A DNA stretch of 64,000 nucleotides, from the NCBI GenBank assembly GCA_001001705.1, contig LCOG01000001.1, positions 22,449 to 86,448 on the forward strand. Reading direction: 5' to 3'. Below the pieces are notes generated by a model, which was given only the letters and a program-made list of their open reading frames with translations, was not told where the DNA came from and did no database searches. Every line of letters begins with the position of its first letter. Positions within the stretch are counted from its first letter, which is position 1. Both the position numbers and the translations under genes were made by a program. Shown one piece after another: positions 42,489-63,263 of the stretch. This stretch comes from Parcubacteria group bacterium GW2011_GWA2_47_26 (lineage in GTDB: Bacteria; Patescibacteriota; Patescibacteriia; GWA2-47-26).

Positions 42489-43445
42489 TTACATTTTGTA
42501 ATCAAAATAATCCAATATTGGTTTTAAATGCTTTCCAATAAAGGATATTTCACTCTCATTCAGTACTTGTATTTTTCTACTAAGAACTGATCTGCCCACT
42601 CCTGTTAATTGCTCAAAAGAACTACCGTATCCATGGGGCTGCCCACATAATGTAGGCTTTAACAGATTGTCGGTAAATTCAATACCTACGTGATCAGCGA
42701 TATCTCTCATCGTTTTTTCCGGCTCTGCCACTAAATCTTCAAATCTTATAAGCACTGTCCGCTCATCCACTATCTCGGATCGGTTATTCCAAAAAAAATA
42801 ATAATCCTTAATAACCTCGGCAAAATTAATCGGATGCAACGTTTTACTTTTCCTGTTTGTTCTGTCAAGTAACGAGTCTCTACTAAACATTCGGGCTTTC
42901 TTAAGAGAGTCAAGTGCATGATAAGGGTTTCTTATAAAAAAAATACATCTACAATTTTTAAGGTTAACTTTTTTTGTAGACAGTATGCTCCTTCCCATAT
43001 CTCCTATAAACATATACGCCGTGTCACGCTCGGAATAATCTGTAGGGAAGGAGTGCGCATAAGCGTTAACTAAACAATTCCAAATCTCGGGAATGCTCGT
43101 GCATCTCTTTAAACCAGCTAAATGATCAAGGAACACTTCCTTTTTAAAGTGAAGATCTACCTCATATTTTACAGGAGCAATTCCGCGAATGACTCCACCG
43201 AGCCAAGGTAATATATCACGGTCAATAAAAGACTCCATTAAATCATCTCTACCAAAGTGCTTAAATGCATCAATAAATAAAGACTCCTGACCTCTTTCTT
43301 GATAATTATATACATGCTCCCAAAAAAAAGCCTCATCAATAAAATGAATAATACCGGGCTGAGAATCAAATAAACGAGTAAGTAGCGTCCCTCCGGATCT
43401 TTTAGGTCCAGAAACAATTATTGTCTTATCAATAGACTTACTCAT
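42489..43445 (-). CDS. Sulfotransferase
   Basis: IIVSGPKRSGGTLLTRLF is a 5'-PSB-like loop. FFIRNPYHALDS is a 3'-PB-like motif. Confidence 0.75.
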   Translation of the reverse strand: MSKSIDKTIIVSGPKRSGGTLLTRLFDSQPGIIHFIDEAFFWEHVYNYQERGQESLFIDAFKHFGRDDLMESFIDRDILPWLGGVIRGIAPVKYEVDLHFKKEVFLDHLAGLKRCTSIPEIWNCLVNAYAHSFPTDYSERDTAYMFIGDMGRSILSTKKVNLKNCRCIFFIRNPYHALDSLKKARMFSRDSLLDRTNRKSKTLHPINFAEVIKDYYFFWNNRSEIVDERTVLIRFEDLVAEPEKTMRDIADHVGIEFTDNLLKPTLCGQPHGYGSSFEQLTGVGRSVLSRKIQVLNESEISFIGKHLKPILDYFDYKM

Positions 43446-44176
43446 ACTTTAATTTCATTTCTAAGTATAGCTCTTCCCATTAAAAGCTCCGCGAATGAAA
43501 AATCTATCTCTTCATCAATATCAATAGATCGTTCCTTCGGCATTACATATAGCGCTGTTTGTTTTGTGATTATGGCGTTCTCTTTAAATAAAGTATCTCT
43601 CGTTGTGGCGTAGATGCCACCATTGGGAATGAAAAGCCTCTCATAAAATTTCCGAACGGTCCTTTTACCTTGAATTGTGCCGAAAAGGTATGGCTCTGCG
43701 TAATTACCCTTTTTAAGTCGGAACATCCATTCAGGTCTCTCACGAATTTCTACTGCCGAAAAGGTCGATGAGAGTGCTTTGCCCTTCATGAGAAGTGATA
43801 TGCATGCGTCAATATCTGCACCGCGACAAAACGGAGAAGTCGGCTGGAGAGTAACAACGATGTCAACCCTCTTTCCTTCCTCCTTCTCAATGGATCTGAT
43901 AACGTGCTGAATAACGACGATAGATGTTGCATTGCTGCCGGAAATTCTTTTTGGTCGTTCATACGGGACCTCGGCTCCATATTGCAAAGAAATCTTTTTT
44001 ATTTCAGGATGATCAGTAGAAACAATAACTCTCCGTAAATATTTGCTTTGGAGAGCGGCGGAGATAATATAGGATATTAACGGTTTCCCTGCTAACAGTT
44101 TTATATTTTTAAGGGGGACCCTTACCGACCCGCCTCTCGCGGGAATAATTCCTATAATATTTAAAGGCATCTTCAT
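43442..44176 (-). CDS. CMP-nonulosonic acid synthetase (acylneuraminate cytidylyltransferase family; NeuA/LegF-like)
   Basis: IIGIIPARGGSVRVPLKNIKLLAGKPLISYII and VTLQPTSPF. Confidence 0.9.
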   Translation of the reverse strand: MKMPLNIIGIIPARGGSVRVPLKNIKLLAGKPLISYIISAALQSKYLRRVIVSTDHPEIKKISLQYGAEVPYERPKRISGSNATSIVVIQHVIRSIEKEEGKRVDIVVTLQPTSPFCRGADIDACISLLMKGKALSSTFSAVEIRERPEWMFRLKKGNYAEPYLFGTIQGKRTVRKFYERLFIPNGGIYATTRDTLFKENAIITKQTALYVMPKERSIDIDEEIDFSFAELLMGRAILRNEIKV

Positions 44177-45249
44177 AAGTTAAACCCTTTTACGGTTTCT
44201 CCGTAAGATTCCCACTGACCAATATCAGACCATGATTTTTCACTTACAGGATAAACACCCACTTTTCCCCCTCTTTCTCTTATCATTTTAATTAGATGGG
44301 GGATATCACATAACTCTTTTATGGGGAGATATTGCAAAACTATTTTTTCCAAAACATACATTCCGGTATTAGCTATAAAATCATACGCGGGTTTCTCTTC
44401 CAACGCGCTTAATTCTCCTCCTGAATTTATTTTCACAACACCATATGGAATAACCGTCTGCTGCATTGATCCTACGATGGTAAGGTCGTTCATATTCTCC
44501 TTATGAAAAGTATATATCTCATCATACCGCGCTTTAATAATCGTATCGCAATTTGAAAGAAAAAAAGTATCCGGAAAGTCTTTAGGAAGGAATTGCAGTC
44601 CTCCTACTGTGCCAAGCGGATCTTCGCCCTCGTCAATATATTTAATTCTATAATTAAAAGAATTATTATCAAAATATGATTTAATCATCTCCCTTTTATG
44701 ATTTAAAATAAGATAGATATCCCCGGCAATGTATTGTAAAAAATTATCAATTATCACTTCCACCGCTGGTTTATCGCCTATTGGTATTAATGCCTTGGGG
44801 AGAATCTTTGTAAATGGGTCTAAACGGCTACCCTTTCCTCCGGCCATAATAATAACGGGCACGTTGAGCGCGGAATATTTTTTATTTATCTCTTCAATAT
44901 TTTCTTCCGCAACGTCTTCCCAAAATATTACCTTCATAATTCGCTTATCCCCATCCACCACCGGAAGTGAGTGAACGCCCGTCTCAAGCATTCTTTTTCT
45001 AACATCTTTTTTTGAAATACCATCTTCAATATACACCGGCTCCTTGTTGTATATCTTATCAACTCTCTCGCGCAAATCACCATCCATAAGTATCCATCTT
45101 CTTATATCGCCGTCGGTAATAGTTCCGAGGAGTCGACAATCTTCATCAGCAACAAAAAGAATCTTTTTGGCTGTCTTGTCCATCTGCTTCATGGCCCCTT
45201 TAATCGTCGAGTCCTCACCCACAAATAAACTGTTCAAATCATCTATCAT
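44173..45249 (-). CDS. CBS-pair + sugar-phosphate nucleotidyltransferase (PtmE-like)
   Basis: GTITDGDIRRW and SLPVVDGDKRIMKVI (CBS), then VIIMAGGKGSRLDPFTKILPKALIPIG. Confidence 0.85.
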   Translation of the reverse strand: MIDDLNSLFVGEDSTIKGAMKQMDKTAKKILFVADEDCRLLGTITDGDIRRWILMDGDLRERVDKIYNKEPVYIEDGISKKDVRKRMLETGVHSLPVVDGDKRIMKVIFWEDVAEENIEEINKKYSALNVPVIIMAGGKGSRLDPFTKILPKALIPIGDKPAVEVIIDNFLQYIAGDIYLILNHKREMIKSYFDNNSFNYRIKYIDEGEDPLGTVGGLQFLPKDFPDTFFLSNCDTIIKARYDEIYTFHKENMNDLTIVGSMQQTVIPYGVVKINSGGELSALEEKPAYDFIANTGMYVLEKIVLQYLPIKELCDIPHLIKMIRERGGKVGVYPVSEKSWSDIGQWESYGETVKGFNL

Positions 45250-45256
45250 ATAAATG

Positions 45257-46476
<1,220 letters not shown>

Positions 46477-46480
<4 letters not shown>

Positions 46481-47112
46481 ATTCTCTTTGCCAAATTTCT
46501 ATAAATCTCGAGGCCATATTGGCCGCTGCATTCCGGATGGAATTGAAAAGCCAAAATATTATCAAACTGAAAACTCGAACAAAACTTATTTGGCCCATAC
46601 TGCGTTATTGAAGAGACAACGTCCTCCTTTTCGAGCTTAACATAATATGAGTGTACAAAATACATTGCCGCGCCATTAGATAACCCGTCCAGCAGCGTCC
46701 CCTTCCACTCAATATCCTTATCTGCCTGTATTTGGTTCCAGCCCACATGCGGCACTTTCACCCCGGGCGCTGTTTGCAATTTCATTACTGTACCTGGAAC
46801 AATGTTCAACCCGGCATGTCGTCCGAATTCAAAGCTCTCCGTCATAAGAATCTGCATGCCCAGACAAATTCCCACAAGCGGCTTGTCTGATAAAGCGTAC
46901 TCGCGCAACACATCCACAAGGCCTTTTTCTGTCAAATGTTCCATCGCAGTTCCGAATGCGCCAACACCAGTCAAAATGACCCCCGCTGACCGCAAAATAT
47001 CATCCCGCGAAGCAGTAATAATAGCACGAATGCCAACTGCTTTACAGGCCTGCTGAACACTGAATAAATTCCCTAGTCCATAATCAATAATTGCAACAAA
47101 TTTGGCATTCAT
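46477..47112 (-). CDS. HisH-like glutamine amidotransferase subunit (polysaccharide-cluster paralogue)
   Basis: VAIIDYGLGNLFSV, GICLGMQIL, FQFHPECS. Confidence 0.9.
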
Positions 47113-48005
47113 ACAGCCGCCACCGGTGTCATCTCGTGTTTAAGACACTGAACGCCGCGATTATTTAAATAATCTTTCAACTCTGGTAAGTCAATACCGT
47201 CCACTCGGGAATACCCTAAATTGCCACGAAGGAAATTCGTGTTTCCTTCACTAAATGATTTTTCTCTATATTTATATTTTTTCAGAAAACTATAATGCAG
47301 AAGGGATGCCATACTCACCGCGTCTACCCTTCCCTTAATAATAATGTCGCATACATGACTCGCGGACCCTGCTCCTCCACCAGCTATCACGGGTATGGAG
47401 ACCGATTCAGTAACTTGTCGAGTCAATTCTATGTCAAATCCTTTTCCAGTGCCTTCATTATCAATTGAAGTAACGAGAATTTCCCCGGCACCCAACTCCG
47501 CTGCCCGCCGAGCCCATTCTATCGCGTCCACACCGGTTTTCTCTCTGCCGTTATCAGTATAACATTCGTATTTTCCGTCCGGCCGCCTCATCGCCTCTAT
47601 AGAAACTACGATGGTAGAAGAACCAAACTCTTGAGACGCTTCCCGAATAAACTCTGGCCTTCTTAATGCAGCCGTATTAATCGCCACTTTATCTGCGCCC
47701 GCCCGTAGAATAGTACGTATATCGTCAATGTTTCGTAAACCGCCGCCGACTGTAAGGGGAATAAAAATTTCACTTGCGGTTTTTTCCACAATATGCAACA
47801 GGTTGTTTCGTCCATAAAGGCTAGCTACAATATCTATATATAATAATTCATCCGCGCCACTCTCGTAATAGTAACGGGCAAAATCTTCTGGCTTGCCAAG
47901 AACACGCAACCCTTCCAGGTGAATACCTTTTACCAGATTTGATCCTTTGATATCCAGGCGCGGGATAATCCGGATGTTAGCCATAGTTTTAGATTGGAAA
48001 TACAT
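47109..48005 (-). CDS. HisF-like cyclase subunit (polysaccharide-cluster paralogue)
   Basis: RIIPRLDIKG, ADELLYIDI, PLTVGGGL, IPVIAGGGAG. The true start is possibly ATG 47984 (MANIRII). Confidence 0.9.
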   Translation of the reverse strand: MYFQSKTMANIRIIPRLDIKGSNLVKGIHLEGLRVLGKPEDFARYYYESGADELLYIDIVASLYGRNNLLHIVEKTASEIFIPLTVGGGLRNIDDIRTILRAGADKVAINTAALRRPEFIREASQEFGSSTIVVSIEAMRRPDGKYECYTDNGREKTGVDAIEWARRAAELGAGEILVTSIDNEGTGKGFDIELTRQVTESVSIPVIAGGGAGSASHVCDIIIKGRVDAVSMASLLHYSFLKKYKYREKSFSEGNTNFLRGNLGYSRVDGIDLPELKDYLNNRGVQCLKHEMTPVAAV

Positions 48006-49183
48006 TATACCGGAGAAGGTGATGTCCGCAAAATATCGTGGAACCGCTTTGGTATCAGTCCCTCAAGCTTAACCTCCGCCAGAACGGCAACGATTCGCTC
48101 ACTCGACTTACCATCGCCATAGGAATTAACAAGATTCTGAAGTGAGGACTGAAAAGACTGGGAAATCGCCTTCTCAATGCCCGCCTTAATCCTTTCTGCG
48201 GAATATCCCACATCAATCACATTAGCGCTGCGCACACGGCCCTCTTCTCGTGTCCCGATATTCACAACCGGCAGTTTAAGTGAAGCTGCTTCAACAATAC
48301 CGCTGGAAGAATTTCCAACCATTGCAGCTGCGTGTCCCATCATGCTAATATACCCTTTATGGCCAAAATTCTTTACGATATATGCGTTGCGATGGTTGCG
48401 GGCGTACGACTCAATTTTTTCAATAATGATCGCGCTCCCCGCATCTTCATTTGGGTAAGTAAACACGACATGATATTCTGAGAAATGCGCAAGCGCATTA
48501 AGTAGATTTATAATATATTTTTTAGTATATTCGTACTCCATGGTTACCGGATGAAAAGTCACCAGTAAGGTTGGCTTTGAAAGATTAACGCCGTAGGCTG
48601 TTGCAAGTTCACTTTTTGAAAAACGCGGCATATTCATTATGTCATCAAGTCCGGGAGCGCCCGAAACCGTAACACGCCACGGTTCTTCTCCCATTTGTTT
48701 AATACGATTCGCATATATCTCGCTGCTGGCAAAATGTAAATGGCTGAATTTAGTCAAGGAATGTCGAAAATAATCATCCAATGCGCCATAAGTGAGCTCC
48801 CCGCCATGAATATGGGCTATGGGAATTCGATAGGGAATCGCTGCTACGGCGGCGGCATGCATCTCATATCGATCTCCAAGCACAACGAGGATGTCCGGGG
48901 CATGGTTACGAAATACCTGCGCAAAATTTTGCGTCCCTACTCCCATGGAACGCGCGATATCAAAAGGCGTATCGCCTTTTGATATCATAGGAATTTTCGC
49001 CGCAATCGGAAAACCATCTTCCTCTATCGCCTTGATTGTATTCCCAAATTTCTCCACCAGATGAGCGCCACTGACATACAGCAAAAGTTCAAGATTGTTA
49101 TGGGCTACTATCTTACGCAGGATCGGGAGATAAACGCCATAATCTGAACGCGCCACTGTCACAATACCAATTTTTCGTTTCAT
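48005..49183 (-). CDS. neuC: Hydrolysing UDP/GDP-HexNAc 2-epimerase (NeuC/LegG family)
   Basis: IGIVTVARSDYGVYLPILRKI, VVLGDRYEMHAAAVAA, IAHIHGGE, GNSSSGIVEAASLKLPVVNIG. Confidence 0.9.
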   Translation of the reverse strand: MKRKIGIVTVARSDYGVYLPILRKIVAHNNLELLLYVSGAHLVEKFGNTIKAIEEDGFPIAAKIPMISKGDTPFDIARSMGVGTQNFAQVFRNHAPDILVVLGDRYEMHAAAVAAIPYRIPIAHIHGGELTYGALDDYFRHSLTKFSHLHFASSEIYANRIKQMGEEPWRVTVSGAPGLDDIMNMPRFSKSELATAYGVNLSKPTLLVTFHPVTMEYEYTKKYIINLLNALAHFSEYHVVFTYPNEDAGSAIIIEKIESYARNHRNAYIVKNFGHKGYISMMGHAAAMVGNSSSGIVEAASLKLPVVNIGTREEGRVRSANVIDVGYSAERIKAGIEKAISQSFQSSLQNLVNSYGDGKSSERIVAVLAEVKLEGLIPKRFHDILRTSPSPV

Positions 49184-50181
49184 AGTGTTATCATTTCATC
49201 CTTAGTAAAATTTCGTGTGGCAATTTTACCAATTACCTTATCCCATGCCATCGGGCTTAATCCTGTCCCCGGTCGTTTTGTTGTAACATTCTCTTGAGTA
49301 AAAACTTCTCCCGCCTGTATATCGCGCTCAGCGATAATACTCTTGCGCGCGATAGCCATAATCTCACGTTCCACCACCGTAGGTCTTTTTACTCCATCGC
49401 CCAGCGCTTTTTCAATATTACGGATAGCGGCCACCATCGCTTTTAGTTCATGCGGTTCAAGTGATGCCTTATGGTCTGGGCCTGACATAGATCTATCCAA
49501 TGTAAAGTGTTTCTCAATCACCCTTGCCCCCAATGCAACCGCCGCGACGGGCACCTCTATCCCAAGCGTATGATCGGAATACCCAACCTGAACGCCTAAT
49601 ACATCTCTCATCGTGCACATAGCGCGTAAATTTACATCTTCCATGGCCGTAGGATAATCGGTATGACAATGAAGAATAACAATGTCATCTTTTGGTGTTC
49701 CTGATTCTATTAAAATATTTAAAGCGGCCCTTACTTCATCCATTTCCGCCATCCCAGTTGACATGATCAATCGCTTTTTAAGCGCACCAAGTTTACGAAG
49801 GTAGGGAAGATTAGTAATTTCCCCGGATGGAATTTTAATGGTTTCTAAACCAAATTTACACAACAAGTCAATGCTCTCCAAGTCAAATGGCGCAGACATG
49901 AAAATAATATTCCGTTCTTTGCAATGAGCAATGAGCTCTTGATGGAACTCTATAGATAACTCTAACTTTTTTAGCATCTCGGCTTGCGATTCATTCGATC
50001 CTGTATTCGCAACCTGGTAATTCGCTTTTATCGCATTAGCAGTTACAACTTTATCGGTCTTGAATGTCTGAAATTTTACCACGTCAGCCCCTGAAGCCGT
50101 CGCGACATCAATAAGTTTTTTAGCAATGATAATATCGCCGTTATGATTTGGCCCTGCTTCTGCAATAATTAAAGTATGCAT
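49180..50181 (-). CDS. neuB: Nonulosonic acid synthase (NeuB/LegI family)
   Basis: IIAEAGPNHNGD, ADVVKFQTF, IKIPSGEITN, YSDHTLG, and a C-terminal SAF-like domain IQAGEVFTQENVTTKRPGTG. Confidence 0.9.
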   Translation of the reverse strand: MHTLIIAEAGPNHNGDIIIAKKLIDVATASGADVVKFQTFKTDKVVTANAIKANYQVANTGSNESQAEMLKKLELSIEFHQELIAHCKERNIIFMSAPFDLESIDLLCKFGLETIKIPSGEITNLPYLRKLGALKKRLIMSTGMAEMDEVRAALNILIESGTPKDDIVILHCHTDYPTAMEDVNLRAMCTMRDVLGVQVGYSDHTLGIEVPVAAVALGARVIEKHFTLDRSMSGPDHKASLEPHELKAMVAAIRNIEKALGDGVKRPTVVEREIMAIARKSIIAERDIQAGEVFTQENVTTKRPGTGLSPMAWDKVIGKIATRNFTKDEMITL

Positions 50182-50194
50182 AAAATATTCTCCT

Positions 50195-51235
50195 TCAAAA
50201 CCAAGATTGTATGTTGCCTTTTGGAAAAGGTTCTTTTAATTCTTGCGCGTTTACTCCGTCAATAAATACATCCTCCTTATAACTAATAGCTAAGCCCTTT
50301 CTTATAGCCGGCGCAGTGATCGTCTCCCCAAGATAGTAATTACGGAGCACCATCTCCGGTTCATTAAAGCCAAAGTGAGCACGGACCGATGTTGTTCCAG
50401 AAAAACGCGCATTAAATTCAAATGGCACTGGGCCATCCTTACCGATCATCAACTGAACATTGAGCGACCCCAAACTCGACAACATTGCTCCAATTTGCCG
50501 CATAAGCACATGGAGTTCAGGAAGCTCCACTACCTCAACAATCCATGAACTTCCGGAACGCAATACTCGCCGCGCAGTAAAAGGACCAAAAAGCTTACCA
50601 TCCTTACACCGAAATATACTGCAAGTATATTCACTGCCAAGCTCCGCCTTAGGCATAGCAATACATTTTTGCAAAAGAGGATTTGATACAGTGGGAAACA
50701 ATCGCGCTAACTCTCCTTCATTATGAAGGATGTGCAATCCACGTGAAGATGTTCCTGATCTGGGTTTTAGTATTACTGGATACCCCCACTCATTTGCTTT
50801 TACAATCGCATCTTCCGCGCTCTTAGGAAGATATGATGGGGCGCAGGGCAATCCATGTTCGCGTAAAAATTCTGCCGTAAGCCATTTATCATCAGCGATA
50901 CGTACCGTTTCAAGCGGTGAAACCACAACCAGCGCGCCCGTTTCCTTTTCAATCTCTTGTTTATATTCGGCAAAAAACATCAAATCAAATTCAGAACCAA
51001 CCATTACTACCTGAATATGTTTCTCTTTTAGCGCATTCATAATCTTCTCCAAAGATCCATCTTCTTCCACTTTTGGGACAATCACCGCCTCATCCGCGCG
51101 ATATAATCCCGCATTCAAGGGGTGGATATCGGCGGCAACGATGATAACTGGCAACGAAGAAATCCGCAAAGATTTCATAATCCCTTGTCCCACAATGCTT
51201 CCTGCTCCCGTAACGAGGACTCTTATCTTTTCCAT
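50195..51235 (-). CDS. ATP-grasp ligase
   Basis: IRVLVTGAGSIVGQGIMKSL, YPVILKPRSGTSSRGL, FEFNARFSGT. Confidence 0.75.
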   Translation of the reverse strand: MEKIRVLVTGAGSIVGQGIMKSLRISSLPVIIVAADIHPLNAGLYRADEAVIVPKVEEDGSLEKIMNALKEKHIQVVMVGSEFDLMFFAEYKQEIEKETGALVVVSPLETVRIADDKWLTAEFLREHGLPCAPSYLPKSAEDAIVKANEWGYPVILKPRSGTSSRGLHILHNEGELARLFPTVSNPLLQKCIAMPKAELGSEYTCSIFRCKDGKLFGPFTARRVLRSGSSWIVEVVELPELHVLMRQIGAMLSSLGSLNVQLMIGKDGPVPFEFNARFSGTTSVRAHFGFNEPEMVLRNYYLGETITAPAIRKGLAISYKEDVFIDGVNAQELKEPFPKGNIQSWF

Positions 51236-55178: not shown

Positions 55179-55871
55179 TCATTCTTTATGGGCGCAAATA
55201 ATGAATTCCTGAATCTCGCTGTGAAGATACTTATGCGCGCTATATCCTACATCATCGATATTAAAGTAAGGCCTAATTAATTCAGCAAAGGTTCGCGCAT
55301 CAGGCGGGCAGTATGAGCGGTGTGCTACTGTATCCCCCGGCTCGCGGGTTTCATATACATTGTCTCCGATCGACTTGGCGTATCGAGCAAAATCACTCTG
55401 GGGGCCGTTAATATCAACAATAATTTTAGCACCGGGTTTCATTACACGTAAAAATTCTTTCAACAAATACTCGGCTCGTTCTTTCGAGCCCAGAAGAGAT
55501 AATACACTCAAACAATTCACATAATCAAATTGTGCATCTGGGTAAGGAAGTACAGTGGCCCCGACAGGAAGATGGGTTAATGTGACATGTGATTGTAATT
55601 CTGGTCGCCTCTGCAATTTTCGCTCCACCAGTTGTTTTGCACCTAGCGATGCATCGATAGCCTTAATGGTATAGCCGCATTCGAGTAAATGAATCAGATT
55701 TTCTCCGCATCCAAATGCATATTCCAAAAGTAACCCCGGCTGGCTTTTAAAAAACCATTTTTCGAGTCGGACAAGATCAAGATTGGGATATTTTTTATCC
55801 GAACCGGCAGCATAATTCGCATCCCATTTTTTTACTGTATCCGGATCAACGAGTATCATAGACTCCTTCAT
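55179..55871 (-). CDS. Class I SAM-dependent methyltransferase
   Basis: ATG 55871; the track start 55877 is TTG. LLEYAFGCGENLIHLL and FDYVNCLSVLSLL. Confidence 0.75.
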   Translation of the reverse strand: MKESMILVDPDTVKKWDANYAAGSDKKYPNLDLVRLEKWFFKSQPGLLLEYAFGCGENLIHLLECGYTIKAIDASLGAKQLVERKLQRRPELQSHVTLTHLPVGATVLPYPDAQFDYVNCLSVLSLLGSKERAEYLLKEFLRVMKPGAKIIVDINGPQSDFARYAKSIGDNVYETREPGDTVAHRSYCPPDARTFAELIRPYFNIDDVGYSAHKYLHSEIQEFIICAHKE

Positions 55872-55884
55872 AATCAATATAACA

Positions 55885-56865
55885 TTAATACCCTAATTTC
55901 TTATTAACTACATTGATGAGCGGAAATCCTTTGACAAACCGTTCGATGTTCTGGCGAATGAGCTCCGCGGAACGTTCTCGATTATTATCTGACGGTCCGG
56001 CAATATGAGGAGTAATGACGACATTCTCCATATTAAGGAGAGGATGATCAACTGGCAACGGTTCGGGATCAGTTACATCCAACCCGGCGGATTTAATCCG
56101 CCCTTGCTTGAGCGCTTCTGTCAAAGCTTCCGTATCCACAATCGCTCCTCGACACACATTCACAAAATACGCCGATGGTTTCATTAAGGCAAACTCTTTT
56201 GCGCCAAACATTTTTTTAGTACGACTCGTTACCGGAACGGAAAGGATCACTACATCAGCCAAAGAAAGTACTTCGGATAAACATTCCGGTACATACCATC
56301 TATCAATCGATCGAATCATTGGTATACATTCCTGATCCACTCCATATACCGTCATACCAAACGCGTGTAATCGCTCGGCGATCAACATTCCAATCCCTCC
56401 CGCCCCCACCACAATCGCAAGCTTATTTCGCAGTTCAACCGGTCGCGGCATCATCTTATCCGATGGACGCGCTATTGTAGTACCTATCGTTCCCCGTAAT
56501 ACGAAATGGATATTCCGAGTGAGTGTAAGAAGTAACGCCAGGGCATGGTCGGCTACCTCGGGACCTTGAATCACCCGTCCATTAGTGAGAACTACATCAC
56601 TTTCGATAAGCTCTGGAATAAGAAACTCCTCACATCCGGCTCCAGGGACATGAATCCAGCGCAGGCTATTTCCGGCAAGTTCCAATAATTCTTTTGAGAA
56701 GAATGGGCGTGGACACCCAATAAGTGCCTGCGTATGAGGCATGGCATTACGCATAGCCTCAAGGGTATCATCAACAATAATACACTCAACTTCGGGTAGG
56801 GCCTGAGTTATTTCTTCAATTTTCTCTCTGGGTAGTCCAGTAGATGCAGTAAGAAGTATGCGCAT
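55885..56865 (-). CDS. D-isomer-specific 2-hydroxyacid dehydrogenase (glycerate/phosphoglycerate dehydrogenase-like)
   Basis: VVGAGGIGMLIAERLHAFGMTVYGVD, FVNVCRGAIVD, DVTDPEPLP, ITPHIAG. Confidence 0.85.
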   Translation of the reverse strand: MRILLTASTGLPREKIEEITQALPEVECIIVDDTLEAMRNAMPHTQALIGCPRPFFSKELLELAGNSLRWIHVPGAGCEEFLIPELIESDVVLTNGRVIQGPEVADHALALLLTLTRNIHFVLRGTIGTTIARPSDKMMPRPVELRNKLAIVVGAGGIGMLIAERLHAFGMTVYGVDQECIPMIRSIDRWYVPECLSEVLSLADVVILSVPVTSRTKKMFGAKEFALMKPSAYFVNVCRGAIVDTEALTEALKQGRIKSAGLDVTDPEPLPVDHPLLNMENVVITPHIAGPSDNNRERSAELIRQNIERFVKGFPLINVVNKKLGY

Positions 56866-56891: not shown

Positions 56892-58487
56892 TCATGGATA
56901 CATAAATTGTTCAACAAACTCCATATTAGGCATTGCTGGCGTAGCGGCGAGGGCCGAAAGTAGATCTTCCTCGCCAAAAATAAGGCGGTTGTGTTCATCA
57001 AAATTCATATACACTATCCGACAACGTTTTTCTAACCGCTCTCGAACATCAATATCCAAACGTGCCTGATCATCTCGCACTAAAAATCCAATCACTGGCT
57101 TATTGGTGCATAAAGCAATGGCAAAGGCGGTGGTTCTAATGTTACCAAATATACACGCACCCGAATCCGTGAGAGCTTGCTCAAAATCACCCGTAGCAAT
57201 TGTAGCGACCGTATCGAAAATTCCTTTTATCTCTCTCATCCGGTCAGGATGCGGCTTATATACCACCTGATATCCAACCTTACGGAGAACATCAATAAGC
57301 CGCAGTTCTAAATCAAGCTGCATTAACGAAAACCGAGCATTTCCAAGATTTTTTCTCCATGGATTATGACAATCGCCAACAACCAGTATTTTTTTAATGC
57401 GGGTTGGGAGCGATTCTTTAGAAAATTTTTGGCGCATCTTCAGATACATATCACTTCCACCGGAGATAATCTTGAGTGGACGCTCTGGAAACAGCCGGTG
57501 GCGGACATACATTCTTTCAAATAATTTAGCGCTGCCCCGGGTATATGCCACAAATTCGTCAGAAATAGCAAATTCGGAAAATGTATAGGTAGGGCTATCG
57601 AACATTGCCATAGCGCCTCCGTGTGTCAAGCTGGTTACTTTTCCACCGGCGTCTCGTACTGCAATTGCCATGGCGCTCAACAGTGGATCCCGAATATGTT
57701 GGGTTATCAAATGGAGTTGCTTCCTTGATTTAACATAACGACGTACCGAGGTTAGCAGTATCGCGGCATCTTCAAGGTGCGATTTGGTAAAGTAAAGAAG
57801 ATAGTGGAGATGCTTAGGCGTGAGGATAATTTGATGACGTGCGGCGACCGCTTGAACTTCTTCTATAATAGATTGGGAAAGTGTTGACAAAATATCTTTA
57901 AACTCTGATGATATATCGCGTCTGCGCATCCAATCTTCTTTGCAATAGGCAATCGACACTGCATAGGGAAGCGAGCGTATATAAGTCTTTATAAACTCAT
58001 TGGGGGCTCCGTACGTAATTCCCTTTTTTCGGCCGAAAAAAAGAGACAAGAATTTTTCTGGTCGCCAATTGTGTTGCAGATTTCGAAGCAACCTCCGCAG
58101 CTGAATCTTCATCATTTTCATTCTGCCCGTGGATGCGTATGTAGTATTGATCAATCGCTTGTCAAGCGTATCGCGAATGATGTCGCAATACCACAGTGAT
58201 TTTTCAGTATAAAGTGGGGCACTGTTTCTTCGAGAAATTTCAAGAATAACTTTCTGCGCATGTAAAAAATGATAATACTCAACTAAGAGTATACTGGCTT
58301 TAATAAGCAATGTATCACGATTTGTTTTTGATTCCATGGCAATACGCCTAGCCATGCACGCTTCAAGGTCGGCACACAATGCAAAAAAATCATTATCCGA
58401 AACCGGCCAAAAGAATTCCTTTTGCCAACGGGCAACTCCGTATTTCTTGACGGCATTGATATCAACAGGAAAAAAAATATCATTCAT
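56892..58487 (-). CDS. Hypothetical protein; the C-terminal half looks like a GT-B domain with an HP motif (candidate nonulosonic acid or capsule transferase)
   Basis: 531 aa. ILVVGDCHNPW, VVYKPHPDR, IRTTAFAIALCTNKPVIGF. The N-terminal ~330 aa are unrecognised. Confidence 0.4.
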   Translation of the reverse strand: MNDIFFPVDINAVKKYGVARWQKEFFWPVSDNDFFALCADLEACMARRIAMESKTNRDTLLIKASILLVEYYHFLHAQKVILEISRRNSAPLYTEKSLWYCDIIRDTLDKRLINTTYASTGRMKMMKIQLRRLLRNLQHNWRPEKFLSLFFGRKKGITYGAPNEFIKTYIRSLPYAVSIAYCKEDWMRRRDISSEFKDILSTLSQSIIEEVQAVAARHQIILTPKHLHYLLYFTKSHLEDAAILLTSVRRYVKSRKQLHLITQHIRDPLLSAMAIAVRDAGGKVTSLTHGGAMAMFDSPTYTFSEFAISDEFVAYTRGSAKLFERMYVRHRLFPERPLKIISGGSDMYLKMRQKFSKESLPTRIKKILVVGDCHNPWRKNLGNARFSLMQLDLELRLIDVLRKVGYQVVYKPHPDRMREIKGIFDTVATIATGDFEQALTDSGACIFGNIRTTAFAIALCTNKPVIGFLVRDDQARLDIDVRERLEKRCRIVYMNFDEHNRLIFGEEDLLSALAATPAMPNMEFVEQFMYP

Positions 58488-59032
58488 GTTAAATCGGGGT
58501 TCAATTTACCAAATAGTAATTCGTCAATATACGAATCTCGAAATCGAACATGCTGCTTTTTCCTTCCCTCTTCAAAAAATCCTAGCTTGAGAAAGGCTTT
58601 TATTGAACCGATGTTATTTTCGTAGGCACCGGCCGTCACCTTATGAAGATGCAGCGTACCAAACGCGTATTCCACAAGAAGTCGGATCGCTTGAGTGGCA
58701 AATCCTCTCCCCCAAGAATTTTGATCTCCAATCATAATGCCGATACTTCCCACGCTATGATGAGGATCAATCGGCCCCAACTTGATATTGCCAATATGCT
58801 CATTGGTGTCTTTTTTCACAATCGCGAACAAATACACCGCGGGGTCTTTTATAACTTTCTCAATATAAGCCCGAACACTCTCTTTCGTATGTACTATAAA
58901 TCTACTCTCAAGAAATTGATTCACCTCCGGAATATTAAGCCAATGCACATATGTATCCGTAGCGTCGGCCGGCTGAATCGGACTAAGATAGATGGTCTCG
59001 CCCTCGAGGCGTAATTGACTATTATCGTGCAT
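58484..59032 (-). CDS. GNAT N-acetyltransferase (RimJ/RimL-like)
   Basis: Start taken at ATG 59032 (MHDNSQLRLEGETIYLSPIQ). ATG 59047 is also possible, and the track start 59086 is GTG. IGIMIGDQNSWGRGFATQAIRLLVEYAF. Confidence 0.75.
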   Translation of the reverse strand: MHDNSQLRLEGETIYLSPIQPADATDTYVHWLNIPEVNQFLESRFIVHTKESVRAYIEKVIKDPAVYLFAIVKKDTNEHIGNIKLGPIDPHHSVGSIGIMIGDQNSWGRGFATQAIRLLVEYAFGTLHLHKVTAGAYENNIGSIKAFLKLGFFEEGRKKQHVRFRDSYIDELLFGKLNPDLT

Positions 59033-60209
59033 AAGGCAAAAGCGCATCGTATACTTGCTTGAATAGAAAATTCTTTTCCTTATCACTTAGTGATATATCT
59101 GTATGAGAAGGGGTAAGTATTTTTTTTCTCAACAACTCGCGCTCATACTCTGTTTCCCAAGTATCGTAGTTATTTCTCCATCCTACCGCTCGCGCATCAT
59201 CTTCTTTTAAAAACGACATCACCGCTTCAGTCGGTAGTCCCCCTTGATATTCCTTGGTTTCATATCCAAATAGGCGCATTTCCGGATCGCATACAAACTC
59301 AATGAATTCCACTGTTCCTTTTGGAAGATATTCTTTCCAAGCTTCAATGCTTTCGGTATACACTCCTTTTTCGGGAACTTTAAAATTACTGTGTACTTTC
59401 CATTCCGTACCTTTCAAGGGACGAAATTTATCCGTATCAAGCATGGCCTCATCATAGTCCACCCCAAGAAATACGCATAATTCCTTAATTATTCTTGCCG
59501 GATCGGATGCTAAATCTTCATATCGTAACAAATATATCCGGCCGTGGAGAGCTGGGTCCTGCGTAAGCATGTGCGCGAATGCCGCATGCTTTCTCCAGTG
59601 ACGAGCGAATGAATACATAAGCGGAACCTTTCCCGCTTTTGAGGGATCCCTTTCTCTTAACTTAAGAGATGAGGCCATGGCCGCACGCGGATCACGTATT
59701 ACGATAATACATTTTGAATTCGGAAATGCTCGAGCCAAAATCGGTAAAAATTCTATTACCCAATTATCATTGAACCCCACCCATGCAGCGCTCTCGGCTC
59801 CGTATGCTTTTTCCAAAATATGGAGACCGCTGGCAAATAACTGCTCGTAGGTAGCTCCTTGAAGTTCTTTCAAAAATGGAGTTACCTCTTGTGCCGCCAA
59901 ACTCATTCTTGCGGACAACTCCGGAACGAGGCGCTCCAATTCTCCGGAGGGAAGTGAAAACCTCAAATCACTGCATTGTATTGCCTTCATCATTGCGATC
60001 TTGTCATCCGAAAAGTAATAATCGTTTAATGGCTGCGCCACGCTAAAACCGGGGTCAATTTTATTTTGAAGGACTGCTGTACGAAAAGAACGAAACAACG
60101 GCAAAAAAGGATCACTCGCCATTTTCACTTCTACATTGATACTCAACATGCGAGCAAAAAAAGTGGTTCCACCTCTTGAAGTTCCCACTGAAAAAAGCGG
60201 ATTACTCAT
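59022..60209 (-). CDS. Sulfotransferase
   Basis: FSVGTSRGGTTFFARML (5'-PSB-like) and IIVIRDPRAAMAS (3'-PB-like). ATGA overlap with the cysC fusion. Confidence 0.75.
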   Translation of the reverse strand: MSNPLFSVGTSRGGTTFFARMLSINVEVKMASDPFLPLFRSFRTAVLQNKIDPGFSVAQPLNDYYFSDDKIAMMKAIQCSDLRFSLPSGELERLVPELSARMSLAAQEVTPFLKELQGATYEQLFASGLHILEKAYGAESAAWVGFNDNWVIEFLPILARAFPNSKCIIVIRDPRAAMASSLKLRERDPSKAGKVPLMYSFARHWRKHAAFAHMLTQDPALHGRIYLLRYEDLASDPARIIKELCVFLGVDYDEAMLDTDKFRPLKGTEWKVHSNFKVPEKGVYTESIEAWKEYLPKGTVEFIEFVCDPEMRLFGYETKEYQGGLPTEAVMSFLKEDDARAVGWRNNYDTWETEYERELLRKKILTPSHTDISLSDKEKNFLFKQVYDALLPYAR

Positions 60210-61006
60210 AGATGACTTTTAATAAATACGTACAGCGATGTTACCGCATCGTTTTGATTTTGTACAGCGGTATCAATTAAGAGATCGGGCGACGTTGGTG
60301 GCTCATAAGGATTGGTCGGGCTATACCCAATCATTGAATCAATCTCTCCGGCAACCGCTTTGGCGTACAATCCTTTTGTATCTCGTTCCATACACTTCTC
60401 AAGTGGACATCTTACATAGACTTCGGCGAAATCAGATCCAATAATGTGTTTAACCGCCTCTCGATCTTCTCGATACGGCGAGATGACCGGAACTAAAACA
60501 ATCTCAACTTCTTCTTTTTTTTCTTTCGCAAGTCGAGCAATCCCCAGATTATTTTCTCGAATATCTTCACGAGAAAATCCTAATTTCCGGTGAACCGTTT
60601 CTCTCACGGCATCACCATCAAGTACGATCACGCGTTTACCGTCTGCTTCAAGACAGTTTTTCACTGCATGGGCGAGAGTGGTTTTTCCCGATCCGGAAAG
60701 ACCCGTAAGCCATACTACTAAGCCATGACGATTTTTTTTAGCATGTTCAGATTTTATGATTCGTATGTAGAGAATAATACAAATAAACAAAAGTACAAGA
60801 GCTAACGCATATTTAATTTGCAGCGGCGGTTGCTGAATTCTTGTAGCGTATGCCAAAGCAATAATGTTGGCAAAAAAAGACAATAACAATAACAGAAAAC
60901 TCAGTCCTTTGACTGTTTTAGTCTTAATAGTCTTAACAATCTGGGGGATGAAGCAAACGGTAAATAAGAATGTTGCCATCCAACCGAGAATTTCAGTGAG
61001 GGACAT
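60206..61006 (-). CDS. cysC: Fusion: PQ-loop/SemiSWEET-like three-helix membrane domain + adenylylsulfate (APS) kinase
   Basis: N-terminal FLFTVCFIPQIVKTIKTKTVKGLSF plus two more helices. Then WLTGLSGSGKTT, LDGDAVR, ISPYREDR, KGLYAKAVAGEI. Confidence 0.85.
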   Translation of the reverse strand: MSLTEILGWMATFLFTVCFIPQIVKTIKTKTVKGLSFLLLLLSFFANIIALAYATRIQQPPLQIKYALALVLLFICIILYIRIIKSEHAKKNRHGLVVWLTGLSGSGKTTLAHAVKNCLEADGKRVIVLDGDAVRETVHRKLGFSREDIRENNLGIARLAKEKKEEVEIVLVPVISPYREDREAVKHIIGSDFAEVYVRCPLEKCMERDTKGLYAKAVAGEIDSMIGYSPTNPYEPPTSPDLLIDTAVQNQNDAVTSLYVFIKSHL

Positions 61007-61007
61007 A

Positions 61008-63263
61008 TTATTCTTTTACAAATACCTCCTCTCCTTGCTCAATCGCCTTTTTGATCATCTGCGCGATTTCCGGGCGAATGAACCACTCCGGCGGCAGCTC
61101 CCCGCTCTCAAATAATTTGCGTGCCTGCGTTCCGCTAATCTGAAGTCGATCTTCCGGCGGATGCGCCATCGCTTCCCATTCATGCATATGAGATCCGAGA
61201 TTCTCTGAGTAAAAAATTTGACCAAAACGAATTGGCGTGATTCCAAGATCAGGGAACCGGTCAAAGATTTCGTGCGACGCGGTCGGAGCATAAAAATCCC
61301 CGACACCGGTATGATCACGTCCGACTATAAAATGACTACAGCCAAAATTCTTCCGACAAATAGCCGTAAATAATGCCTCACGCGGGCCGGCATAGCGCGA
61401 GAAGGTTGCGAGCGTACCAAAAATCACTTTATTTTTTGGATAAAAATGCTGCATCATCAGTTCGTAACCGCGTATGATATAGGACGCTTGAAAATCCCCG
61501 GCCTTCTTTTTCCCAATAACCGGATGCACAAACAATCCGTCGCAAAAATTATCCTCCAAGGCTTTGAGCTGAATATATTCATGCGAGCGATGGATCACAT
61601 TGCGCGTATGGAACCCCACGACTTTGCGCCAGCCGCGCTCCGCAAACAATCGTCGCGTCTGTGCTGGCGTGAGTTCATAGGCTTTCGTGGACGTCTCTCG
61701 CCGAGAGAGTAAATCAATCGTACCGCCCAGAAGAACCGGTTTCATGTTCTTTACTCGTCGAACCCCGGGATGATCATTGCTAAGCGTGCCGTAGAGTTTT
61801 TCCGCAAAAAACTCTTTGTCGATCGTGAAGATATCCTCTAGGCGCAAAAAAGCCATCGGCAGATCCTGACGATCGGCGTATAGCCCGATCGTCTGCCCAA
61901 TTTTAAGATTTTTCGCCTGCTCTTGATTGACATCAAGTATCACTGGAATCGGCCAAATAACGCCGCTTGGCAGACGCATAGTATTAAGCACACTCTCAAC
62001 CTCGCCTCGGGTCATAAATCCTTGCAATGGACTAAACGTCCCGATGCCGATCTGTTCTACATCCATTTGCGCTAATTCATCCAATTGAATTCTTGACAGA
62101 GCTGAAAAATCGGTGTTGGGAATAGTTTTCAGCATGCGATCGACAAGGACTCCACCATGTGGTGGCACCAAAAGCGTGCCATATGAAGATATTGTCAGGT
62201 ACTCGTTCATCTTCAGATGGGCAACCAAATCTTGATCTCTCGTATTGAGAATTGGTTCCGGAACCGCATTGCCCACATGCGAAATAATTTTCTGTAGTGT
62301 CTGGACACAGTCAAATGGATATTTTCCGATTGCCGTTTCAGCAGCCAGGGCAAGTCCGCCTGCTCCGTCCAGGATGCAGCTGACAATATCATGCACCTCG
62401 GCCCGTGTTGGTTTTGGTTTATCTACCATTGTCTCGAGCAAGTTTGTCGCCACAAACACCTCTTTCCCGTGTTCTCTGGCCGCACTGATAATAATTTTTT
62501 GCAACAAAGGCACTTTTTCAATCGGTACTTCTTTACTCAAATCTCCTCGATCAATCAACAGATAATCTGACGCCTTGATGATCTCATCCAAGTTGTGGAG
62601 AGCGTCGACACATTCAATTTTTGAAATAATCTTCATCCGTCCTTGCGTTGCACGCCGCACCTCTTCCACGAATGCGCGCGAACGCATAAACGATGCTGCA
62701 ATCGTACTCACGCCTTTTTGTAAACCGATCTCAATGCCGCGATAATCTTTTTCTGTAAGGCAAGGCAAATTCCACCTACGGTGCGACGATGGATCAACTA
62801 TAACACCTTTATTACTTCCGAGCGCACCGGCAGAGATGGCCGTTGCCAACACACATCCACTATCACGCTTAGAAACATCAGTCACTTGCAATACGAGTGT
62901 TCCAAAATCCAGATGTAAAATATCTCCCAACTCGAGCTGAAAAACGATCGGGAAGGGACGAAGTGCCAGGGCATCGCCGCCACTGGTCACTTCATCGGCG
63001 CATAATCGTACCGTGCCCCCCTCTTCAATCTCAATCTTTTCACCCTGCACATTTCCACTGCGAATCTGTGACCCTTCTGTATCCAACACAAATGGAATCC
63101 CCACGTCTTTAGCAAGATCGATAAAATTCTCAAGATCTTCAAGACTCGAGTGAGACATGTTCACCCGCACAAATGATACGCCTTGATCTTTGAGTTTTTG
63201 CAGTGCCTCGCGGCTGCGTGTTGCGGGACCGAGAGTGACAATAATTGCAGGTTTGCGTTCCAT
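61008..63263 (-). CDS. sat: Fusion: pyruvate-kinase-like A/B-domain barrel + full ATP sulfurylase (sulfate adenylyltransferase)
   Basis: N-terminal half: IIVTLGPATRS, FVRVNMSHSS, VLDTEGSQIRSG, KIISKIECVDAL, LIDRGDLSKEVP, LALAAETAIGKYP. C-terminal half: LVPPHGG, GFHTRNVIHRSHE, VHPVIGKKKAGD, IVGRDHTGVG. Single uninterrupted 751-aa ORF. Confidence 0.85.
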   Translation of the reverse strand: MERKPAIIVTLGPATRSREALQKLKDQGVSFVRVNMSHSSLEDLENFIDLAKDVGIPFVLDTEGSQIRSGNVQGEKIEIEEGGTVRLCADEVTSGGDALALRPFPIVFQLELGDILHLDFGTLVLQVTDVSKRDSGCVLATAISAGALGSNKGVIVDPSSHRRWNLPCLTEKDYRGIEIGLQKGVSTIAASFMRSRAFVEEVRRATQGRMKIISKIECVDALHNLDEIIKASDYLLIDRGDLSKEVPIEKVPLLQKIIISAAREHGKEVFVATNLLETMVDKPKPTRAEVHDIVSCILDGAGGLALAAETAIGKYPFDCVQTLQKIISHVGNAVPEPILNTRDQDLVAHLKMNEYLTISSYGTLLVPPHGGVLVDRMLKTIPNTDFSALSRIQLDELAQMDVEQIGIGTFSPLQGFMTRGEVESVLNTMRLPSGVIWPIPVILDVNQEQAKNLKIGQTIGLYADRQDLPMAFLRLEDIFTIDKEFFAEKLYGTLSNDHPGVRRVKNMKPVLLGGTIDLLSRRETSTKAYELTPAQTRRLFAERGWRKVVGFHTRNVIHRSHEYIQLKALEDNFCDGLFVHPVIGKKKAGDFQASYIIRGYELMMQHFYPKNKVIFGTLATFSRYAGPREALFTAICRKNFGCSHFIVGRDHTGVGDFYAPTASHEIFDRFPDLGITPIRFGQIFYSENLGSHMHEWEAMAHPPEDRLQISGTQARKLFESGELPPEWFIRPEIAQMIKKAIEQGEEVFVKE

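Follow-up and report, generated by a model that had tools for sequence, protein, structure and literature searches.

Within a 64,000-nucleotide stretch of the genome of Parcubacteria group bacterium GW2011_GWA2_47_26 (the whole stretch is referred to here as the window), the segment running from about 63997 down to 39175 probably specifies a self-contained cytoplasmic pathway for making a sulfated glycan that contains legionaminic acid. Two predicted sulfotransferases, here called ST1 and ST2, lie in one run of genes with enzymes that make the compound presumed to donate their sulfate, 3'-phosphoadenosine 5'-phosphosulfate (PAPS), and with the genes of a nonulosonic-acid pathway. These donor enzymes are an ATP sulfurylase (Sat) fused to the barrel of a pyruvate kinase (PK) and an adenosine 5'-phosphosulfate (APS) kinase (CysC) fused to a PQ-loop domain. 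Recurrence of these associations across phyla, together with several gene fusions, argues strongly that the PAPS genes serve the sulfotransferases and that both sulfotransferase families act on nonulosonic-acid glycans. The relatives of ST1 and ST2 suggest that bacteria have a class of sulfated surface sugars not yet described. The four central features are as follows.

59022-60209, minus strand: ST1, predicted cytoplasmic PAPS-dependent sulfotransferase, 395 amino acids (aa) (Pfam, motifs, fold)
42489-43445, minus strand: ST2, predicted cytoplasmic PAPS-dependent sulfotransferase, 318 aa (Pfam, motifs, fold)
61008-63263, minus strand: PK::PUA_2::ATP sulfurylase fusion (PK-Sat), 751 aa (Pfam, NF003166)
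60206-61006, minus strand: PQ-loop::APS kinase fusion (CysC), 266 aa (Pfam, TIGR00455)

Two predicted sulfotransferases and their donor supply

Are ST1 and ST2 sulfotransferases at all? The initial annotation of the sequence had proposed as much from PAPS-binding motifs, with unrelated P-loop enzymes as the alternative, and the motifs it quoted are found exactly where it placed them: GTSRGGTTF (aa 9-17) and IRDPR (aa 171-175) in ST1, and GPKRSGGTL (aa 13-21) and IRNPYHALDS (aa 171-180) in ST2. Both proteins score above the Pfam gathering cutoffs for Sulfotransfer_3 (3.3e-20 for ST1 and 3.9e-14 for ST2) and Sulfotransfer_1 (5.5e-13 and 3.5e-6). In the ST1 family alignment, R12 and G14 of the 5'-phosphosulfate-binding loop GTSRGGTT are invariant and T15 is at least 90% conserved, the loop aligning to GMPRSGTT of the tyrosylprotein sulfotransferases (TPST). 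At the 3'-phosphate-binding site, which aligns to the TPST sequence IRDGRAxVHS, R172, D173, and R175 are invariant and P174 and S180 at least 90% conserved. The ST2 family alignment has P14, K15, S17, and G18 invariant in GPKRSGGT, and R172, N173, P174, and S180 invariant at the 3' site. Candidates for the catalytic base, picked out by their conservation in the alignments, are the acidic or histidine residues D33 and E153 in ST1 and E38, E43, and H44 in ST2.

Structural comparison gives the same answer. AlphaFold models of both proteins are of high confidence, with a predicted local distance difference test score of 92.3 and a predicted TM-score of 0.93 for ST1, and 87.7 and 0.88 for ST2. In profile searches of the PDB, the significant matches of both proteins were all sulfotransferases, including TPST (7e-19) and the CurM sulfotransferase (2e-13) for ST1 and the OLS/CurM sulfotransferases (1e-10) for ST2. 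In Foldseek searches of the PDB, the top 37 matches of ST1 and the top 50 of ST2 are sulfotransferases throughout, with heparan-sulfate 3-O-sulfotransferases lower in the ST2 list. Profile hidden Markov models and structure prediction thus both find a sulfotransferase fold, as the initial annotation had expected. ST1 also has extra helical insertions and a C-terminal extension of ~80 aa, and its query-normalized TM-scores are 0.45-0.50. Aligned to each other with hhalign, the two proteins match with a probability of 99.2% and an E value of 9e-20 (18% identity over 285 columns, including a common C-terminal region), by which they are distant paralogs. To judge from sequence, ST1 founds an unnamed family of ~390-aa proteins and ST2 a small unnamed family of ~310-aa proteins. 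Neither ST1 nor ST2 has a signal peptide-like or transmembrane (TM) segment, so both are expected to act in the cytoplasm, at the site of PAPS synthesis.

The first donor enzyme, PK-Sat, matches the Pfam families PK (1e-72), PUA_2 (1e-42), and ATP-sulfurylase (4e-77). Its sulfurylase portion exceeds the cutoffs of two curated models (NF003166, 428 bits against 387; TIGR00339, 336 against 323) and contains the Sat motifs HTRNVIHRSH and VGRDHTG. The PK barrel, made up of the A and B domains, occupies aa 3-320. Because the C-terminal regulatory domain is absent, full-length PK models failed: TIGR01064 reached 292 bits against a cutoff of 306 and was covered only to position 359 of 476. Residues R33, N35, S37, H38, D61-T62, R68, K215, E217, D241, T273, and E308 align to conserved positions in PDB entries 2e28 and 6du6, and we take them to be the named catalytic residues of pyruvate kinase.

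The second donor enzyme, CysC, matches Pfam APS_kinase (2e-50) and TIGR00455 (187 bits against 138.7) and carries the P-loop GLSGSGKTT along with the motifs LDGDAVR and ISPYRED. Sat and CysC are both intact as far as these signatures tell. The N-terminal PQ-loop domain of CysC is recognized by Pfam (2e-13; 50.3 bits against a cutoff of 22), has TM helices at aa 2-20, 34-52, and 66-84, and scores 37 bits with the NCBIfam model SemiSWEET_2, for which the cutoff is 80. The initial annotation had noticed neither this domain nor the PK barrel of Sat. The earlier description of Sat and CysC as part of a co-directional string with NeuB, NeuC, and the CMP-transferase holds, with all of these genes on one strand. 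Neither a PAPS/APS reductase nor a sulfite reductase is listed among the Pfam matches of the PK-Sat loci that were fetched or of the 64-kb window.

Recurrence of the gene combination

If the association of these genes is meaningful, it should be seen elsewhere. ST1 homologs number 81 at the cluster level, all unnamed, and come from more than 10 phyla. The family is well delimited, as the E value jumps from 7e-36 for the last clear member to 3.5e-5 for the next match. A scan taking one genome per species yielded 29 loci, 28 of them with a full ST1 match, the DNA available per locus having a median length of 19 kb and several loci being short contigs. Hosts include Omnitrophota, Ignavibacteria, Planctomycetia, Dehalococcoidia, Hyphomicrobiales, the Olavius Gamma-3 symbiont, Rhodoferax, Burkholderiales, Bacteroidota, two Leptospira species, Desulfovibrionales, and Nitrospirota, among others. 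Annotated plasmid and phage collections gave no match to ST1.

Neighbors were counted by tblastn with the window proteins (E < 1e-8, at least 50% coverage), counts from which divergent partners are missed. A NeuB-type homolog lies within 10 kb of ST1 in 21 of the 28 loci and a DUF4910 homolog in 25, the latter within 300 bp in 9. GNAT homologs are near ST1 in 9/28 loci, and GNAT, LegC, and WbuX/HisH/HisF homologs are found in 9 to 12 each. A nonulosonic-acid pathway gene of some kind is present in 24 of the 29. In the closest ST1 relative (60% identity), DUF4910, PK-Sat, and ST1 stand beside NeuB. In the homolog P0050, CysC and ST1 form one polypeptide (CysC::ST1), flanked by PK-Sat, NeuB, GNAT, two DUF4910 genes, and an ABC (ATP-binding cassette) exporter. 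The cultured species Leptospira ainlahdjerensis has a locus with NeuB, CMP-transferase, a LegC-like gene, GNAT, CysC, DUF4910, ST1, WbuX, HisH, HisF, and NeuB. That locus (L023 in our numbering of retrieved loci) also encodes, at 1572-3563, a 663-aa FAD/NAD-binding protein fused to a cysteine-dioxygenase-type cupin, an unusual sulfur-related domain for a sugar cluster. Its strain is 201903070, and two further cultured carriers of the ST1 module are Leptospira sp. 96542 (L020) and Pseudodesulfovibrio pelocollis SB368 (L022).

DUF4910 is the most constant ST1 neighbor and often occurs in two copies. DUF4910/DUF2172 proteins combine an M28-like metallopeptidase fold with a winged helix (PDB 3k9t, 3e-43). 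In the window the gene continues past the end; in the sister contig L001 (516-1871) the full gene encodes 451 aa. DUF4910 was linked to NeuB-containing modified-sugar loci in 2014, when its function was left open, its active site was found to be non-canonical, and sulfotransferases went unmentioned (PMC4000134). One pure speculation, by analogy, is that its pairing with a sulfotransferase follows the logic of NDST, in which a deacylase works together with an N-sulfotransferase.

The ST2 family is smaller, with 29 homologs, and three of its neighborhoods were examined. All three are nonulosonic-acid loci. The immediate partners of ST2 are an MsbA/PglK-type ABC exporter, adjoining it in L035 and L037, and a ~490-aa homolog of the window's Capsule_synth-like protein, adjoining it in L033 (28% identity) and L037 (26%). 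Locus L033 contains a CMP-transferase, an adjacent CysC, ST2, the Capsule_synth-like gene, NeuB/NeuC, and PK-Sat.

What about the donor enzymes? Full-length PK-Sat homologs number more than 120, with 55-63% identity, in Patescibacteria, Nanoarchaeota, and Woesearchaeota, and many carry an additional fused APS kinase, giving proteins of ~930 aa. The PK-Sat fusion is, on this count of homologs, widespread in genomes of the candidate phyla radiation (CPR) and DPANN. It has been found in glycan or sulfation loci of other such genomes and lies beside ST1 or ST2 in L004, L007, L033, L039, and L040. In a woesearchaeal locus (L041, 6748-10298), PK-Sat overlaps by 4 nt with an upstream gene for a soluble Sulfatase-family protein of 418 aa; CysC follows 0.9 kb downstream, in a glycosyltransferase-rich setting in which no recognizable sulfotransferase was called.

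An exhaustive search with the PQ-loop domain returned 35 close relatives (E <= 1e-10), nearly all of them free-standing proteins 80-130 aa long, so the PQ-loop::CysC fusion is rare; the idea that it is a common architecture was rejected, two matches of ~262 aa not being CysC fusions. In Candidatus Sungbacteria (L042), a 91-aa PQ-loop gene at 5834-6109, 70% identical to the CysC PQ-loop domain, is followed by a sulfotransferase, a PK-Sat-CysC triple fusion, and a CysQ-like phosphatase. A metagenome scan based on an alignment of 9 sequences found PK-Sat and/or CysC as the immediate neighbor of close PQ-loop homologs in 9 of 50 loci (L055, L060-L062, L065, L067, L073, L080, and L088), making this the commonest neighbor family; among the loci with at least 2.5 kb on each side, the adjacency was seen in 4/18. 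The PQ-loop protein as an exclusive sulfation component was partly supported only, the other loci containing general glycan genes.

The same gene combinations thus recur around homologs in unrelated phyla, and the linkage of PAPS genes to sulfotransferases does not look accidental, given CysC near ST1 in 7/28 loci, the CysC::ST1 fusion, and the recurrence of PK-Sat. The central proposal of the initial annotation, that sulfate esters are a built-in decoration of the glycan, is well supported by the identity of the sulfotransferases, the PAPS genes, and their recurrent linkage.

A proposed route and its alternatives

How might such a pathway operate? PK::PUA::Sat would activate sulfate to APS, which the membrane-tethered PQ-loop::CysC would convert to PAPS. 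The PK domain probably uses phosphoenolpyruvate (PEP) to rephosphorylate the ADP released by CysC, feeding ATP to the costly PAPS pathway; such recycling would suit an organism with little ATP-generating capacity. The PQ-loop may anchor CysC at the membrane, where assembly occurs, or may serve in transport, of sulfate or a PAPS-related compound for example, or in the handling of lipid-linked sugars. ST1 is proposed to work around the monomer stage, its target being the nonulosonic acid, a precursor, or an N-acyl or O-substituent, because its family travels with NeuB, GNAT, and DUF4910 across phyla. ST2 is proposed to act at the assembly stage, on a lipid-linked or growing glycan before export, because the companions of its family are the ~490-aa transferase-like protein and the MsbA/PglK-type ABC exporter. 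The ABC transporter would flip or export the glycan once sulfation in the cytoplasm is complete, and the sulfate would presumably end as a stable ester on the finished glycan. A more specific version, put forward tentatively and with rather more doubt than belief, has three parts: (i) ST1 sulfates a legionaminic-type sugar or its nucleotide-activated form; (ii) this chemistry occurs in more than 10 phyla, with the ST1 and ST2 families as its markers; and (iii) in CPR and DPANN organisms the donor comes from a PEP-driven, membrane-associated PAPS "metabolon" of PK::Sat(::CysC) and the PQ-loop protein. If true, it would be the first case of a sulfated sialic-acid-like sugar in prokaryotes, and a PEP-driven PAPS metabolon would be previously undescribed.

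Several points weigh against the proposed route. The closest solved relatives of ST1 and ST2 are tyrosylprotein sulfotransferases and the "activating" sulfotransferases of CurM and OLS, not carbohydrate sulfotransferases. The division between a monomer stage and an assembly stage comes from gene neighborhoods alone. No phosphatase of the CysQ type, acting on 3'-phosphoadenosine 5'-phosphate (PAP), was found within the window. Finally, in the one characterized glycan known to hold both legionaminic acid and sulfate, an N-glycan of Halorubrum sp. PV6 (PMC6137143), the sulfate is on the neighboring hexuronic acid, to which the terminal legionaminic acid is attached.

With regard to the phosphatase, the PHP-family protein encoded at 51223-51948 was considered for the missing activity. 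Its closest solved relatives are the PHP domain of PolX and YcdX, not the TrpH type, and it co-varies with an ATP-grasp gene rather than with ST1, on which grounds this role was rejected.

The Halorubrum glycan leads to the alternative to be taken most seriously, though not the one favored here: that a different sugar of the repeat or oligosaccharide, such as the residue bearing legionaminic acid, carries the sulfate, and the nonulosonic acid does not. The ST1-NeuB linkage might then merely reflect that a nonulosonic acid caps such glycans in every case. The window does encode many other sugar pathways and glycosyltransferases, and ST2 neighbors the transferase and exporter genes instead of lying among those for the monomer; sulfation of a neighboring sugar is quite possible, above all for ST2. 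ST1, in contrast, sits amid NeuB, GNAT, LegC, WbuX, and DUF4910 in more than 20 loci whose other sugars differ, a distribution that fits an acceptor common to all.

Could the sulfate instead be transient? In CurM, OLS, retinol dehydratase, and LGS1, sulfation is "activating," and if one of the two enzymes, most plausibly ST1, worked in this way, the sulfate would be a leaving group for an elimination, substitution, or cyclization and would be gone from the final product. The CurM and OLS domains are among the closest solved relatives by both profile and fold, and the partner DUF4910 has the non-canonical active site mentioned above (PMC4000134). The likeness to CurM and TPST may, however, just reflect the breadth of the Sulfotransfer_3 family, and no thioesterase or other known sulfate-elimination partner is present. 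Two sulfotransferases, a dedicated and energetically reinforced PAPS supply, and an exporter-adjacent sulfotransferase fit stoichiometric decoration better, and we consider a transient sulfate unlikely.

It is more improbable still that ST1 and/or ST2 are protein or peptide tyrosine sulfotransferases, like TPST or RaxST, acting on a glycoprotein or secreted peptide: although TPST1 and TPST2 are the best PDB matches (for ST1, 7e-19 by profile and 4e-9 by fold), identity to TPST is just 17-20%, no peptide-precursor or secretion and processing genes are linked, and the conserved neighbors in every phylum examined are sugar-nucleotide enzymes. Equally hard to credit is the idea that Sat and CysC are ordinary assimilation genes linked by chance to glycan genes, with the sulfotransferases drawing on a general PAPS pool, since the linkage recurs in unrelated lineages, including as CysC::ST1 and PK-Sat-CysC fusions, and the reductases of assimilation do not appear in the Pfam tables of the fetched PK-Sat loci or of the window.

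The proposed route to a sulfated legionaminic-acid glycan can also be set beside known systems. In Sinorhizobium meliloti, NodP/NodQ and NodH link dedicated PAPS synthesis to a carbohydrate sulfotransferase for Nod-factor sulfation, and the likeness lies in a locus-encoded, second-purpose PAPS supply coupled to a sulfotransferase that decorates a secreted or surface glycoconjugate. The window differs in that its Sat is of the homo-oligomeric type fused to a PK barrel, not CysD/CysN-like, its kinase is fused to a PQ-loop, its two sulfotransferases belong to unnamed families, its host belongs to the CPR, and its acceptor pathway is that of a nonulosonic-acid glycan, not of a lipo-chitooligosaccharide. 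Animals are known to sulfate sialic acid, and one study describes the vertebrate sialate O-sulfotransferases WSCD1 and WSCD2 (PMC9304399). If ST1 works on the nine-carbon sugar, it would yield an analogous kind of product, a sulfated sugar of the sialic-acid family. WSCD1 and WSCD2 are Golgi proteins that act on finished sialoglycans, whereas ST1 and ST2 are predicted to be soluble, cytoplasmic, and nearest to TPST and the CurM sulfotransferase; no particular sequence kinship between the two pairs was seen, no comparison aimed at it having been made. The Halorubrum sp. PV6 glycan is likewise a prokaryotic surface glycan combining legionaminic acid and sulfate; it is archaeal and N-linked, and no sulfotransferase is assigned to it in the accessible part of the report (PMC6137143). 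With the Sulfotransfer_3 enzymes CurM, OLS, and TPST, the closest solved structures, ST1 and ST2 share a common fold and PAPS-binding motifs, yet identity is just 15-20% and ST1 and ST2 are stand-alone proteins in sugar loci. Literature searches found no description of sulfated bacterial nonulosonic acids or of the ST1 and ST2 families, no link between nonulosonic-acid loci and sulfotransferases, and no PK-Sat fusion, an absence that is no proof; searches on CPR sulfotransferases and on sulfate assimilation in Parcubacteria returned nothing relevant.

Sulfate esters and sialic-acid-like sugars are the two main sources of strong negative charge and recognition signals at cell surfaces. We know of no earlier case of their genetic coupling in bacteria. 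If the reading is confirmed, the ST1 and ST2 families would become an annotation marker for sulfated nonulosonic-acid glycans, with carriers including cultured Leptospira and Pseudodesulfovibrio, marine single-cell genomes, an animal symbiont, and ultra-small CPR bacteria. The often-annotated "sat/cysC" genes of CPR and DPANN genomes would be reread as genes of surface decoration, not of sulfur assimilation or cycling, and the PK::Sat fusion suggests a way in which PAPS synthesis could be driven by PEP. In granular-sludge extracellular polymeric substances, sulfated and sialylated polymers have been measured chemically, and known reference sulfotransferases fail to explain them (PMC10483923); ST1 and ST2, if confirmed, would address this gap.

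The sugar pathway and the rest of the window

Every long open reading frame (ORF) from 63997 to about 25500 is carried on the minus strand. From the DUF4910 gene to the FemAB-like gene, the gaps between successive genes, all on the minus strand, are -13 to +26 nt, a spacing by which the stretch is organized like one operon. A promoter and terminator scan of 44-64 kb gave counts equal to the shuffled expectation and was uninformative. Proteins identical to those of the locus are annotated in Parcubacteria GW2011_GWC2_45_7 (contig LCLE01000002.1) and in GW2011_GWA2_47_26, both CPR genomes from the Rifle aquifer, and a Joint Genome Institute (JGI) metagenome also holds identical proteins. Besides the four features given above, the run contains the following genes.

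63272-63997, minus strand: DUF4910/DUF2172 protein, C-terminal part (Pfam DUF4910, 4.8e-24)
58484-59086, minus strand: GNAT N-acetyltransferase, weakly PseH-like (Acetyltransf_3, 1.9e-25; PseH, 6e-13, below cutoff)
56892-58487, minus strand: soluble 531-aa protein of no recognized family (no Pfam or NCBIfam match, no TM segment)
55885-56865, minus strand: D-2-hydroxyacid dehydrogenase (Pfam 2-Hacid_dh_C, 5.5e-49; NCBIfam matches all below cutoff)
55179-55877, minus strand: S-adenosylmethionine (SAM)-dependent methyltransferase (Pfam Methyltransf_11, 2.5e-10)
54173-55171, minus strand: LegB, NAD-dependent 4,6-dehydratase (TIGR04180, 493 bits, cutoff 475)
53074-54180, minus strand: LegC-family aminotransferase (TIGR04181, 434.5 bits, cutoff 420)
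51945-53063, minus strand: SAM-dependent methyltransferase, 372 aa (Methyltransf_23, 1.3e-17; 25% identical homolog in L033)
51223-51948, minus strand: PHP-family phosphoesterase (Pfam PHP, 3.5e-9)
50195-51235, minus strand: ATP-grasp ligase (NF009402, 325.6 bits, cutoff 218)
49180-50181, minus strand: NeuB/LegI-type nonulosonic acid synthase (TIGR03569, 495.6 bits, cutoff 399.65)
48005-49183, minus strand: NeuC/LegG-type hydrolyzing 2-epimerase (TIGR03568, 447 bits, cutoff 236)
47109-48005, minus strand: HisF/WbuZ-like cyclase subunit of an acetamidino (amidotransferase) system (WbuZ, 276.8 bits, and HisF, 282.6 bits, both just below cutoff)
46477-47112, minus strand: HisH-like glutaminase subunit of the amidotransferase system (TIGR01855, 200 bits, cutoff 105)
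45257-46480, minus strand: WbuX-family N-acetyl sugar amidotransferase (TIGR03573, 327 bits, cutoff 203)
44173-45249, minus strand: CBS-domain sugar-1-phosphate nucleotidyltransferase (Pfam CBS and NTP_transferase)
43442-44176, minus strand: CMP-nonulosonic acid synthetase, a cytidylyltransferase (CTP_transf_3, 2e-25; PseF, 143 bits, below the cutoff of 205.7)
40971-42473, minus strand: 500-aa protein with a weak KpsC/KpsS-type Capsule_synth match (PF05159, 2.2e-5, 24.5 bits, cutoff 20)
39175-40968, minus strand: MsbA/PglK/HepA-type ABC exporter with fused transmembrane and nucleotide-binding domains (Pfam ABC_tran; HepA, MsbA, and PglK NCBIfam models below cutoff)
38152-39168, minus strand: FemAB-like gene, the end of the tightly packed run

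The sugar pathway appears to be of the legionaminic-acid type with an acetamidino option, leading to legionaminic acid or an epimer. LegB, LegC, the NeuC-type epimerase, and the NeuB-type synthase all exceed curated cutoffs, and the CMP-transferase rests on Pfam. In Campylobacter jejuni, the legionaminic pathway consists of LegB, LegC, LegH, LegG, LegI, LegF, and PtmE. The window matches it in LegB, LegC, the epimerase, the synthase, the CMP-transferase, and the CBS-nucleotidyltransferase, which we take to be PtmE-like from its architecture (no curated model matched). It differs in having a GNAT in place of the hexapeptide LegH. No hexapeptide-type LegH is encoded between 42 and 64 kb, where the GNAT at 58484-59086 is the only acetyltransferase (a hexapeptide protein lies outside the segment, at 32760-33338), so that the final sugar may be legionaminic acid or an epimer. 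This GNAT is a likely candidate substitute for the LegH step, and it probably begins near 59032, in line with its 182-aa gene call in sister contigs.

The window also has genes that the C. jejuni pathway lacks: WbuX/HisH/HisF, two methyltransferases, the 2-hydroxyacid dehydrogenase, the PHP and ATP-grasp pair, and the sulfation genes. Apart from WbuX/HisH/HisF and the sulfation genes, these, along with the 531-aa protein, seem to point to more side-group chemistry. The 2-hydroxyacid dehydrogenase is the probable supplier of a hydroxy-acyl side group, and the ATP-grasp ligase is the probable means of attaching an acyl or amino-acyl group to the sugar. Homologs of the PHP (51% identity) and ATP-grasp (50%) proteins adjoin NeuB as a pair in the unrelated locus L033 (18785-20482), and no PHP homolog was seen near ST1 in the 29 genome loci; the pair probably serves as a module for an acyl or amino-acyl side group of the nonulosonic acid. 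A 27% identical homolog of the 531-aa protein adjoins a LegB-like gene in L037 (860-2437). Toward the end of the run, the 500-aa Capsule_synth-like protein may be a CMP-sugar-dependent transferase, and the ABC exporter is a candidate flippase or exporter of the finished lipid-linked glycan.

The remainder of the window is devoted to glycan biosynthesis as well, with GT4 and GT2 glycosyltransferases, Gmd, several DegT aminotransferases, a Wzy-like protein, DUF2079, and a WecA-like initiating transferase. Altogether it holds at least 2 sugar-nucleotide systems, more than 8 glycosyltransferases, and an ABC exporter. CPR genomes are typically about 1 Mb, and a very small genome is here devoting at least 64 kb to surface glycans. 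A 781-aa "Sulfatase"-family protein is encoded at 10917-13262 (minus strand), with ~7 TM helices at its N terminus. A role as a sulfate-editing sulfatase was rejected, as it has NTTQSV where the formylglycine motif C/SxPxR is expected and its N terminus is polytopic; it looks like an LtaS/EptA-type phospho-group transferase that would decorate the glycan extracellularly. The sole sizeable plus-strand ORF of the window, at 24559-25503 (314 aa, TTG start, no Pfam match), occupies a ~1-kb gap between minus-strand genes; it could be a genuine gene on the opposite strand, or it could hide a minus-strand gene that has decayed.

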